Below are positions 5,243 to 7,715 of a DNA stretch of 24,504 nt, piece after piece (position 1 is the stretch's first letter; every line of letters starts with the position of its first letter). The notes below the pieces were generated by a model. It did not search any database and had not been told where the DNA came from. It saw nothing but the letters and a program-made list of their open reading frames with translations. A program made the position numbers and the translations under genes. The DNA comes from a virus (taxonomy: Duplodnaviria > Heunggongvirae > Uroviricota > Caudoviricetes): the IMG/VR virus record IMGVR_UViG_2861069343_000004; one strand, given 5' to 3'.

Positions 5243-5601
5243 ACCAATATCGCATTTCATTACCCTGGCCGCCAAGCAACAACCGCTACTACCGGCACAA
5301 CCGGGGACGCACACACATCAGCGCGGAAGGGCAGGCATACCGCGACAGCGTCGCCAGAATCATCAAAGACTCGATGCTTGATATCGGCCTGGCCACGCCA
5401 TTGAAAATCCGTATTGAGTGTCACATGCCGGATCGCCGGCGCCGTGACCTGGACAATCTGCAAAAGGCAGCATTCGACGCCCTGACGAAATCGGGTTTCT
5501 GGCTCGATGACCAGCAGGTTGACTACTACAGCGTAAAGAGAATGCCTGTCGTCAAAGGTGGGCGGCTTGAGCTAACCATTACCGAAATGGAGTCCGCATG
5601 A
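5239..5601 (+). CDS. rusA: Holliday-junction resolvase RusA (120 aa)
   Basis: Size, position in the nin region and an acidic catalytic segment ([29 protein letters not shown]) fit RusA. ATGA overlap with the upstream gene. Confidence 0.85.
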
Positions 5602-5738
5602 GCCGTGACGTTATCGAACGCATCCGCGACCGCTGGCAAAAGCTTCGCCTCCTGCGTAGCCGCGGCACCGTGCTGGTCGACTACAAAATATTACGCAATT
5701 TCGTCCGTATCTATAAGCGCCTGGGAGAAGCAGCATGA
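5598..5738 (+). CDS. Small YlcG-like protein (46 aa, [46 protein letters not shown])
   Basis: Hand-translated. ATGA overlaps at both ends. A small gene of this size sits between rusA and the Q-like gene in DLP12-type prophages. Confidence 0.5.
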
Positions 5739-6424
5739 CAGCTCAATACTTGGAATTTGTTCGCCAGCAGCTGATAGTGGCCACCGCCGATCTGAGTGGT
5801 GCGACGAAAGGGCAACTGGTAGCTCTTGCAGAGAACGCGCAATTTACCGCTACGGCGCGCAGCCGTGGCCGGAAGAAGGTATATAGCGAGGTGAAGCAAA
5901 AAATGGTTAACCCGGATGGACCGCCGATGAGCGGCAGCCAGTCCCGCGCTAAGGGTTCCTCAATCGCTCTCGTTCTGCCCGTTGAATACTCGACAGCCAG
6001 CTGGCGTCGCGCCCTCCTGTCGCTGGAAGACCACCAGAAATCCTGGTTGCTGTGGAACTACAGCGACAATATCCGCTGGGAGCACCAGGAGACGATAACC
6101 CGCTGGGCATGGGAGCAATTCAGCGACAAGCTGGCCGGTGTGCGCATTGCAAAGAAAACAGTCGATCGCCTCTGTCAACTTATCTGGCTGGCCGCACAGG
6201 ACGTCAAAGCCGAGCTGGCAGGACGGGAGACGTATGAATACCAGTCGCTGGCGGAGCTGGTTGGTGTAGCAAAGTCCACATGGACAGAAACCTACCTCCC
6301 TCATTGGCTGGCGCTGCGCAGCAGTTTTGTGAAGCTTGATAGCGACGCTCTCATGGCGGTAACGCGATCACGTTCACAACAAAAGGCGTCAAATTTAGAT
6401 GTAAGTCTTGCAAAACCGAACTGA
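5735..6424 (+). CDS. Putative late-gene antiterminator (Q-like) (229 aa)
   Basis: Last gene before a promoter plus terminator and the lysis cassette, which is the canonical Q position. The family call is positional plus weak recollection. Confidence 0.5.
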   Translation: MTAQYLEFVRQQLIVATADLSGATKGQLVALAENAQFTATARSRGRKKVYSEVKQKMVNPDGPPMSGSQSRAKGSSIALVLPVEYSTASWRRALLSLEDHQKSWLLWNYSDNIRWEHQETITRWAWEQFSDKLAGVRIAKKTVDRLCQLIWLAAQDVKAELAGRETYEYQSLAELVGVAKSTWTETYLPHWLALRSSFVKLDSDALMAVTRSRSQQKASNLDVSLAKPN

Positions 6425-6436
6425 AAGGCATATATT
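6408..6436 (+). promoter_or_regulatory. Candidate sigma70 late promoter (pR'-like): TTGCAA, 17-nt spacer, TATATT
   Basis: Hexamers read directly from the sequence. It overlaps the 3' end of the Q-like gene and lies about 55 nt upstream of a strong terminator, matching the lambda pR'/tR' arrangement. Confidence 0.4.
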
Positions 6437-6491
6437 TCATGTAAATCTGATATCGTCGCCATAGCTTCGATTGTCGACACATAAAGAATTC

Positions 6492-6520
6492 AAGCCCGAG
6501 GTTAACGCCTTGGGCTTTTT
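6492..6520 (+). terminator. Intrinsic terminator (tR'-like): 10-bp stem AAGCCCGAGG/CCTTGGGCTT, loop TTAACG, then a T-run
   Basis: Inverted repeat with one G-U pair followed by TTTTT, read from the sequence. Confidence 0.7.
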
Positions 6521-6527
6521 CATTTCA

Positions 6528-6602
6528 GGGTCAGAAGCACAGCGGTTGTGCGTTCGGCTGTTAACCGAATGGTAGAAGGTTCGAATCCTTCCTGTCCCGC
6601 CA
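6528..6602 (+). tRNA. tRNA-Asn (anticodon GTT)-like gene, 75 nt including an encoded CCA
   Basis: Hand-folded cloverleaf. The D stem (GCAC/GTGC), anticodon stem (TTCGG/CCGAA) and T stem (GAAGG/CCTTC) are all perfect. The anticodon loop is CTGTTAA (E. coli tRNA-Asn has CUGUUAA) and the T loop is TTCGAAT. The acceptor stem GGGTCAG/CTGTCCC has one T-T mismatch at 4:69, and position 8 is A rather than U. Confidence 0.6.
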
Positions 6603-6736
6603 AATAATGGCCTGACCTGATGACGGGCTCATAATCCAATCCATCAGGGGCGCTGCTGCAACAGCGTCACAGGCCGCCAGACCAAGCCTGGGTATTTTCG
6701 GTCATCACCGACATTGCTATTACCCTCATACTTATT

Positions 6737-6765
6737 GCCTGCCTAACCGCAGGCTTTTTTATTTT
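6737..6765 (+). terminator. Second intrinsic terminator (stem GCCTGC/GCAGGC, loop CTAACC, TTTTTTATTTT)
   Basis: Perfect 6-bp inverted repeat plus a T-run. Its tail repeats the ATTT(T)CAGGGTC motif that follows the first terminator. Confidence 0.6.
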
Positions 6766-6867
6766 CAGGGTCGCGGGAATCACCCTCGACGCTTTGTTGG
6801 TAAATCAGCCCGACGGCCCTGACCTTCTCACACACAGCTTCCCGATCTTTCATCGGAGGCGGTAACT

Positions 6868-7179
6868 ATGGCTAAGCGTATGCAAGACAAAGAGAGCATT
6901 GCCGGGATGTCCTGGCTGGTTCTGCTGATCATTGCTGGTTGGGGCGGCCTTGTCCGATTCCTGATGGACGTAAAGCAGGGCAAAGCAAAATGGAGCTGGA
7001 TAAATGCTTTTGCGCAGATTGTGGTTTCGGCTTTTACCGGGGTTATTGGTGGGCTCATCAGCATTGAAGGTGGCCTGAGTATTTACATGATACTGGCCAC
7101 TGCCGGTATCAGTGGTGCTATGGGTTCCGTAGCGCTCACGTATTTCTGGGAACGAATCACCGGAGTGAAAGCACAATGA
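6868..7179 (+). CDS. Holin, three predicted transmembrane segments (103 aa), with a possible dual start (M1 / M5)
   Basis: Three hydrophobic segments, a charged C-terminus, GGAGG ribosome-binding site, and a stop overlapping the endolysin start (ATGA). The N-terminus MAKRM resembles a holin/antiholin dual-start motif. Confidence 0.8.
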   Translation: MAKRMQDKESIAGMSWLVLLIIAGWGGLVRFLMDVKQGKAKWSWINAFAQIVVSAFTGVIGGLISIEGGLSIYMILATAGISGAMGSVALTYFWERITGVKAQ

Positions 7180-7715
7180 AAGCAGACCAGACTATCGAGG
7201 GGATCCTCGGCAAAGAGGGCGGTTATGTCGATCATCCGTCGGATAAAGGCGGGCCGACCCGCTGGGGCATCACGCAGACCACAGCTCGAGCACATGGTTA
7301 CACCGGTGATATGAGAAACCTGCCCAGGGAAACAGCAAAGCAAATTCTGCTCAGCGATTACTGGACCGGCCCCCGATTCGATCAGGTGGCAAGTTTATCT
7401 ACGTTACTGGCAGATGAGCTTTGCGACACTGGCGTGAACATGGGGCCATCGGTTGCAATTAAGTTTTTCCAGCGCTGGCTCACTGCCCTTAACATGCGTG
7501 GGAAGTTGTATCCCGATCTGATCCCGGATGGCGCCATTGGCCCCCGAACCATCACTGCGCTTAAGGGATATCTTTCAGCCCGCGGGAAAGAGGGGGAACA
7601 GGTTCTGTTACGTGCGCTGAACTGCAGCCAGGGCGCCAGATACCTCGAACTGGCGGAGGGCCGCGAAGCCAACGAGGAGTTCCTCTACGGCTGGGTTAAG
7701 GAGCGCGTGCTATGA
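7176..7715 (+). CDS. Endolysin, GH108-like catalytic domain plus peptidoglycan-binding C-terminal domain (179 aa)
   Basis: N-terminal motif EGGYVDHPSDKGGPTRWGIT matches the GH108 lysozyme-family signature as I remember it. Placed between holin and spanins. Confidence 0.8.
   Translation: MKADQTIEGILGKEGGYVDHPSDKGGPTRWGITQTTARAHGYTGDMRNLPRETAKQILLSDYWTGPRFDQVASLSTLLADELCDTGVNMGPSVAIKFFQRWLTALNMRGKLYPDLIPDGAIGPRTITALKGYLSARGKEGEQVLLRALNCSQGARYLELAEGREANEEFLYGWVKERVL

Follow-up and report, generated by a model that had tools for sequence, protein, structure and literature searches.

A probably functional tRNA-Asn(GUU) gene leads the RNA cargo that follows the late terminator in a lambdoid prophage

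The stretch of viral DNA analyzed here, 24,504 nucleotides (nt) of the IMG/VR record IMGVR_UViG_2861069343_000004 (hereafter the window), carries between the gene for the late antiterminator Q and a lysis cassette a tRNA-Asn(GUU) gene followed by further RNA features (Table 1). The presence of Q, a late-promoter-like site, a terminated leader RNA of the isrJ family, and the holin and endolysin genes marked this part of a lambdoid prophage as its late control region, consisting of Q, late promoter, short terminated leader RNA, cargo and lysis cassette. The tRNA gene lies on the strand of the late operon, 3' of Q, the promoter and an intrinsic terminator and 5' of the lysis genes, and the same arrangement was found in 10 annotated phages. 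Positions 6490-6700 were 100% identical in several complete Escherichia coli chromosomes, with WCHEC035148 and an ST540 strain among the carriers, and this segment was carried by 90 of 5426 complete genomes. As judged from sequence comparison, this gene very probably encodes a functional phage-borne tRNA-Asn(GUU), the first and here the only tRNA gene of a lambdoid slot for RNA cargo, and the two copies of a 19/20-nt motif found on either side of it would be the tails of different terminators.

Table 1. Features of the late control region, with positions in the window
Feature	Position	Strand	Basis or remark
Q late antiterminator gene, 229 amino acids	5735-6424	+	Pfam PF06323 Phage_antiter_Q, E = 9.5e-82
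Late-promoter-like sigma-70 site	6408-6436	+	TTGCAA / 17-nt spacer / TATATT; overlaps the end of Q
isrJ-family short leader RNA, late promoter to first terminator	6440-6522	+	Rfam RF01393, terminator scan, fold
Motif copy 1	6514-6532	+	Final stem bases and U-tail (first terminator), then tRNA bases 1-5
tRNA-Asn(GUU)	6528-6602	+	ARAGORN, Rfam, RefSeq; encoded CCA, U4:U69 mismatch, A8, U21, A48
tRNA-shaped three-way-junction RNA ("TLE"), 71 nt	6609-6679	+	Fold, covariation
Spacer of about 80 nt ending in second terminator	6680-6765	+	Terminator stem 6737-6754 and U-tract
Second terminator stem	6737-6754	+	Terminator scan; U-tract after stem
Motif copy 2	6753-6772	+	U-tail of second terminator and first bases of the holin-leader stem
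Structured leader RNA 5' of holin gene	6765-6822	+	Outer stem 6765-6777 with 6809-6822; central hairpin 6786-6790/6796-6800
Holin gene, first of lysis cassette	6868-7179	+	Pfam PF16083; RefSeq annotation
GH108 endolysin gene	7176-7715	+	PF05838 and PF09374; RefSeq annotation

To establish the identity of the tRNA gene, the window was searched with ARAGORN, which returned a single tRNA, a tRNA-Asn (gtt) on the plus strand, at exactly the bases where a sequence-only reading of this DNA had drawn a cloverleaf. The Rfam tRNA model (RF00005) matched 6528-6599 with 61.4 bits against a gathering score of 29 (E = 2.8e-11) and marked pair 4:69 as the only non-canonical one. The RefSeq annotation places a tRNA-Asn at exactly these positions in E. 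coli chromosomes that are 100% identical over the segment 6490-6700. The acceptor stem, GGGUCAG/CUGUCCC with U4 opposite U69, is followed by A8 and A9, a D arm (GCAC-AGCGGUU-GUGC), an anticodon arm (UUCGG-CUGUUAA-CCGAA), a variable loop (UGGUA), a T arm (GAAGG-UUCGAAU-CCUUC), the discriminator base G73 and an encoded CCA, and the core nucleotides A14, G18-G19 and UUC at 54-56 are all present. The GUU anticodon and G73 are identity elements of asparaginyl-tRNA synthetase (AsnRS). In a comparison with the host genes, as proposed in the sequence-only reading, the phage tRNA shares with E. coli tRNA-Asn (asnT/U/V/W) the 7-nt anticodon loop CUGUUAA (U33, GUU, a purine at position 37), G73, CCA and the T-loop UUCGA-U, whereas only 48 of 76 bases are identical overall, the host acceptor strand reads UCCUCUG instead of GGGUCAG, and the U8/A21 and Watson-Crick 4:69 pair of the host are missing from the phage tRNA.

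The gene was revealed to be widespread and highly conserved. GenBank annotates it at the same place in the Klebsiella phages ST11-VIM1phi8.1, Chronis, GZ7 and ST13-OXA48phi12.5, and it is present, unannotated in the record, in the E. coli phage HK639; an exact 34-mer from the tRNA was found in at least 120 IMG/VR contigs. Of 117 copies compared, 99 were mutually identical and differed from the window by one base, C48, where the window and three others have A48. The 5' sequence GGGTCAGA, the 3' sequence CTGTCCC-G-CCA, U4:U69 and A8 were essentially invariant among them. In all of the 90 loci with enough flanking sequence, tRNA-Asn was the first tRNA, 7-12 nt past the terminator tail, and although these loci carried 37 distinct terminator stems, the tail TTTTTCRTTTCA preceded the tRNA in nearly all of the 117 copies, whatever the stem. 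The window resembles the lambdoid tRNA arrays of Klebsiella and E. coli phages (ST11-VIM1phi8.1, Chronis, GZ7, Mulock, ST16-OXA48phi5.2, HK639) in position, strand and terminator tail, with 74-75 of 75 bases identical within its own sequence type, but differs from them in having Asn alone, where its relatives add tRNAs for Arg(UCU), Thr(UGU), Gly(UCC), Phe or Ser. The tRNAs of these prophages have been reported to lie between the antiterminator and holin genes (PMC7371120), in agreement with the earlier remark that some lambdoid phages carry tRNAs at this place. The tRNA gene and its slot have thus already been annotated and described and are in themselves ordinary, so that the present analysis confirms a routine annotation while removing the false lead of an insertion scar or pseudo-tRNA. 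As a side observation, positions 1897-1975 of HK639, directly after tRNA-Asn, resemble the tRNA-Gly(UCC) of phage RAH1 and gave no ARAGORN call; they may be a decayed tRNA.

A second type of phage tRNA-Asn was found in Mulock, ST16-OXA48phi5.2 and ST101-KPC2phi6.1, and is annotated as tRNA-Asn in Mulock and others. This Mulock-like type has 51 of 75 bases in common with the window type, and about 10 stem pairs are changed on both sides with Watson-Crick pairing kept. From the window to the Mulock-like type, pair 6:67 goes from A-U to G-C and pair 7:66 from G-C to A-U; three pairs of the anticodon stem, three of the T stem and at least one of the D stem are changed in the same manner, and the D-stem pair 13:22 becomes U-U. 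The Mulock-like type nevertheless retains U4:U69, the loop CUGUUAA and G73. For the sequence-only reading, the acceptor-stem mismatch and A8 had raised the question of a functional tRNA, a decoy or a processing signal. Given that both are invariant among the copies and that the mismatch is kept in the second type, they do not point to a decoy or pseudogene, and the alignments argue that U4:U69 and A8 are fixed lineage features of a selected gene rather than traces of decay.

With regard to expression, base 1 of the tRNA lies 10 nt past the stem of the first terminator and about 7 nt past its T-run, so that the distance of 8 nt given earlier was approximately right. This gap of about 10 nt leaves no room for a separate promoter and contains no promoter-like site, and transcription would therefore have to come through the terminator; expression by late read-through, as originally suggested, is accordingly the natural expectation. 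Polymerase starting from the late promoter (about 6408-6436) would read past the terminator at 6492-6522 and transcribe the tRNA, which has no promoter of its own; read-through would be efficient for Q-modified polymerase and limited to leakage in the lysogen. The tRNA would then be cut from the late transcript by the host tRNA-processing enzymes, RNase P and those acting on the 3' side, and the RNase P cut at its 5' end would also part the leader RNA from the late mRNA. Given its GUU anticodon and G73, the product would be charged by AsnRS and could add to the tRNA-Asn of the host, or take its place, while late proteins are being made. The locus would in this respect be a clean example of lambdoid RNA cargo hung behind the late terminator and so switched on by Q, and the cargo modules of the slot appear to be joined to one another at terminator tails.

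The repeated motif was located in the sequence-only reading at exact coordinates and was described as the tail of a terminator in each case, and a terminator scan indeed found both hairpins. In the form GCTTTTTYATTT(N)CAGGGTC it occurs exactly twice in the window and not once in 100 dinucleotide-preserving shuffles. In copy 2 the heptamer CAGGGTC is the 5' strand of the long stem in the holin-leader RNA. The expectation that the motif would recur at the same place in relatives held for copy 1, whose tail stands before the tRNA almost throughout as described above, and failed for copy 2, which was found downstream in only 26 of 110 tRNA-Asn loci. An exact copy 2 was present in the tRNA-less phage ST15-VIM1phi2.1 (L134), and variant forms in three further tRNA-less phages (L002, L135 and L136). 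A synthetic junction of the first terminator with the leader, representing an empty site, was not matched without interruption in any of 50,697 phage records, and the exact empty-site pattern was absent from 2.9 million viral contigs of IMG/VR.

Several observations weigh against the interpretation of the locus as a functional tRNA gene between two separate terminator tails. The near-universal U8/A21 of the tRNA core are replaced by A8/U21 and 4:69 is U-U, and in the window copy A48 stands opposite G15, where most copies have C48, so that this allele might have reduced function. Asn codons are not rare, and their frequency of 44.7 per 1000 in the late open reading frames compared with 33 per 1000 in the early ones is too weak an enrichment for codon compensation to serve as the rationale. 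Expression, processing and aminoacylation of the tRNA are all inferred. Lastly, the 7-nt identity CAGGGTC after both tails exceeds what a terminator needs and could mark an old recombination joint at this microhomology. It was on the repeat that the earlier proposal had been built, namely that a tRNA-containing segment of about 240 bp looks like an insertion or duplication at the late-operon leader; in the corresponding rival reading, tRNA, downstream RNA and terminator would form one discrete unit, inserted or tandemly duplicated there, with the motif copies as its junction repeats. The copies, 19-20 nt long and one substitution and one extra base apart, are indeed more alike than chance would allow, and the content between first terminator and leader varies from phage to phage as inserted cargo would. 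However, copy 2 stands in L134 with neither tRNA nor copy 1, and L002, L135 and L136 carry variants of it under the same conditions; the tail of copy 1 accompanies the tRNA without copy 2 in 84 of the 110 loci; other versions of the leader differ after CAGG and covary with their pairing partner, which makes the GGGTC match specific to one version; and the flanking direct repeats of a target-site duplication would be expected at all loci and with an empty site bearing a single repeat, neither of which was observed. An insertion or duplication is thus highly improbable and has already been largely refuted. We read the motif pair instead as two terminator tails at module junctions, arising only in phages that combine this tRNA module with one specific version of the leader, and the extra identity of GTC would be due either to chance or to an old joint at microhomology.

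It is still less probable that the tRNA-like sequence does not decode, whether as a pseudogene, as a decoy or solely as a signal for RNase P to separate the leader RNA from the late mRNA. The non-canonical 4:69, A8, U21 and A48 of the window copy would fit such a reading, and 10 nt behind a terminator hairpin an RNase P cut would set the 3' side of the leader. On the other hand, the model score is twice the Rfam threshold; the 117 copies are near-invariant including CCA, anticodon loop and G73; the second type keeps the anticodon and, through compensatory changes, the cloverleaf with the exception of one D-stem pair; and the gene shares its arrays with ordinary tRNAs, those for Arg(UCU), Thr(UGU), Gly(UCC), Phe and Ser. 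The processing role put forward earlier may well hold as a side effect of the RNase P cut and is compatible with decoding, but it cannot be the whole role, as it leaves the conserved anticodon and discriminator unexplained. A functional tRNA-Asn is the reading we retain, and its value to the phage may lie in codon supply or in resistance to a host tRNA nuclease. We regard it as a possibility, though not a likely one, that this value is defence evasion, in that the altered acceptor stem (GGGUC.../...GUCCC, U4:U69) and anticodon stem would resist a host or prophage nuclease that depletes tRNA-Asn. The acceptor stem completely different from that of the host within an overall likeness of 48 of 76 bases, the retention of the unusual U4:U69 in two divergent phage types, and a codon that is neither rare nor appreciably enriched in the phage are all consistent with this idea. 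In addition, the slot often carries tRNA-Thr(UGU), the species recently shown to rescue cells from the action of P2-OLD, a nuclease that underlies P2-lambda interference (PMC12445682), and phage tRNAs in general have been argued to evade tRNA-targeting defences (PMC10264068). Against it, the anticodon loop is the same as that of the host, unlike in the cases of loop mutation, and no nuclease specific for tRNA-Asn was identified in this analysis. The first place of tRNA-Asn in the arrays, the conserved terminator tail and U4:U69 in two lineages nonetheless point to a specific selective pressure on tRNA-Asn, possibly a nuclease.

Besides the tRNA, the slot holds two conserved structured RNAs that match no Rfam family, a tRNA-shaped element and the leader of the holin gene. 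The tRNA-shaped element is separated from the CCA of the tRNA by AATAAT. Its outer stem P1, which is 6 bp long and acceptor-like (6609-6614/6670-6675, GGCCUG/CAGGCC), followed by GCCA at 6676-6679, encloses a long hairpin P2 (6616-6622/6642-6648) whose tip consists of GGG (6625-6627), the loop CUCAUAA (6628-6634) and UCC (6635-6637), and a short hairpin P3 (6650-6655/6662-6667) with the loop CUGCAA. The minimum free energy was -32.4 kcal/mol with a z-score of -3.25. Among 32 distinct copies, 98.6% of the cells were paired and five pairs were changed on both sides, a result reached by none of 500 shuffles, while slid controls gave 31-53% pairing. In 36 of the 90 loci the element closed the tRNA array, and it could represent a second RNA gene between the two motif copies, standing in for the last "tRNA" of the array. 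A literature search found no paper containing its sequence.

Known RNA classes did not account for this element. Reading it as a tRNA without a D arm was rejected: it gave no Rfam tRNA hit at E <= 10 and was negative in the bacterial, relaxed and mitochondrial modes of ARAGORN, it lacks a D arm, and the loop CUGCAA of its short hairpin is not that of a tRNA T arm. An antiterminator RNA of the HK022 put type was considered on account of a boxA-like string before related copies, but the string proved to be the variable tail of a terminator, and the HK022 putL sequence showed no resemblance. The string CUGAUGA might suggest a hammerhead or a C/D box; its G, however, is replaced by A with a matching change in its pairing partner, and therefore lies in a stem.

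A second form of the element was also found, in which the same two inner hairpins are set in a covarying outer stem of 19 bp without CCA, the short hairpin being of variable length. At least 100 viral contigs carried this form, as did genomes of E. coli, Shigella, Enterobacter, Leclercia and Pseudocitrobacter, and it lay directly 3' of an STnc100-like RNA and its terminator; the gene on its 3' side falls into a PHROG family without assigned function and had no Pfam match. The tip of its long hairpin, CGGGCUCAUAACCC, is a 14-nt identity with the anticodon stem-loop of E. coli initiator tRNA-fMet, as verified on the sequence, and in the window form of the tip one G-C pair is G-U instead. It is a speculative proposal that a small RNA cut out of the transcript mimics the initiator anticodon arm. 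In its full form, which we consider unlikely, the inner module would be released as a stable small RNA, in one form of the element by tRNA-processing enzymes, in the other perhaps by RNase III, and would act through this mimicry as a decoy for a nuclease cutting tRNA anticodon arms or as a ligand for a component of translation initiation.

The spacer that follows the element and ends in the second terminator is possibly a processed small RNA, with its 5' end made by processing at the preceding CCA. In relatives, it is one of two alternative modules at this place, the other being unrelated and of similar length. It lies at the place that the small RNAs PasA and PasC hold, just 5' of the holin gene, but did not resemble in sequence the stretch preceding the holin gene of phage YYZ-2008, the pasA region, and on this ground a relationship to PasA was rejected. 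In three close relatives of the window, STnc100 (RF02076) was detected in the slot between Q and holin (L001, 1501-1693; L002, 1499-1694; HK639, L007, 2234-2439) and is there an alternative or additional cargo. The order in L001 is first terminator, STnc100, terminator, tRNA-Asn, tRNA-shaped element, terminator and holin leader. A different conserved spacer was seen in L003, L004, L005, L006 and L134, phages with the second tRNA-Asn type or tRNA-Gly; it occupies about 95 nt after the first terminator, before the first tRNA, and carries an 11-bp hairpin (CAGGGCTCTTG...CAAGAGCCCTG).

Comparable cargo is known from other phages. The Shiga toxin (Stx) phage 933W carries the tRNA genes ileZ-argN-argO 3' of its late promoter, with the toxin gene next. 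The Salmonella prophage BTP1 has two central tRNAs directly 5' of the late operon (bioRxiv 10.1101/787010). In these cases as in the window, the tRNAs stand behind a Q-controlled late promoter and terminator and ahead of late genes, and would be co-expressed with late transcription, but they are rare-codon Ile and Arg species with no sequence relation to the window tRNA. Stx-type prophages encode STnc100/PasD in the late-leader slot and the small RNAs PasA and PasC immediately ahead of holin (bioRxiv 10.64898/2026.05.13.724894). The window shares with them non-coding RNA cargo with intrinsic terminators between Q and the holin gene; unlike them, and unlike L001, L002 and HK639, it lacks STnc100.

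At the upstream border of the slot, Q is annotated as "bacteriophage antitermination protein Q" in the identical E. coli prophage. The late-promoter-like site was the sole promoter-like site in 5500-7500 in a promoter scan; it lies directly 5' of the start of the isrJ-like RNA, and this stretch is also kept in Gifsy-1. Positions 6440-6518 matched the isrJ model (RF01393) over its full length (model positions 1-75) with 57.1 bits against a gathering score of 37, and the leader as a whole folded with a z-score of -3.9. Its terminator-like hairpin (6492-6517) has 11 pairs, six of them G-C, a loop of four and a T-rich tail. In having a promoter just 5' and an intrinsic terminator at its 3' end, the element is like IsrJ of Gifsy-1. 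IsrJ is functionally comparable to lambda 6S RNA. What Rfam calls IsrJ is here a short promoter-to-terminator transcript directly after Q, which suggests that small RNAs of the IsrJ type are late-leader transcripts comparable to 6S RNA. The reported role of IsrJ in Salmonella invasion cannot be transferred to the window element, which directly follows Q, unlike isrJ of Gifsy-1, which lies after anrP and not directly after a Q-like gene (PMC4825925).

At the downstream border, the holin-leader RNA is likewise a conserved structure. Four divergent versions (the window, the P22-like UPF_BP1, mEp237 and GZ7) adopt the same fold with z-scores of -3.6 to -5.2, and the structure was defined from these four single-sequence folds, since MAFFT/RNAalifold misaligned the 5' strand owing to differing stem lengths. 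An outer stem of 13-15 bp encloses a conserved loop (GGGAAUCA...GCUUUGUUGNUAAAU) and the small central hairpin. The outer stem covaries across 42 variants, as exemplified by the strand pairs CAGGGUCG/CGGCCCUG, CAGGUUC/GAACCUG, CAGGCUUC/GAAGCCUG and CCCAGACCCU/AGGGUCUGGG. The leader was found in phages of Klebsiella, of E. coli (mEp237) and in P22-like phages of Salmonella, with or without tRNAs (four phages having the leader lacked a tRNA), and in almost all copies it is preceded by a terminator of its own. Between leader and holin gene, a small hairpin on the plus strand (6842-6859, CCGAT/ATCGG) overlaps with its 3' arm the Shine-Dalgarno sequence GGAGG of the holin gene. Other versions of the holin upstream region carry hairpins of different sequence at the corresponding place, and because the position of the hairpin is kept across versions despite these differences, translational control of the holin gene is suggested.

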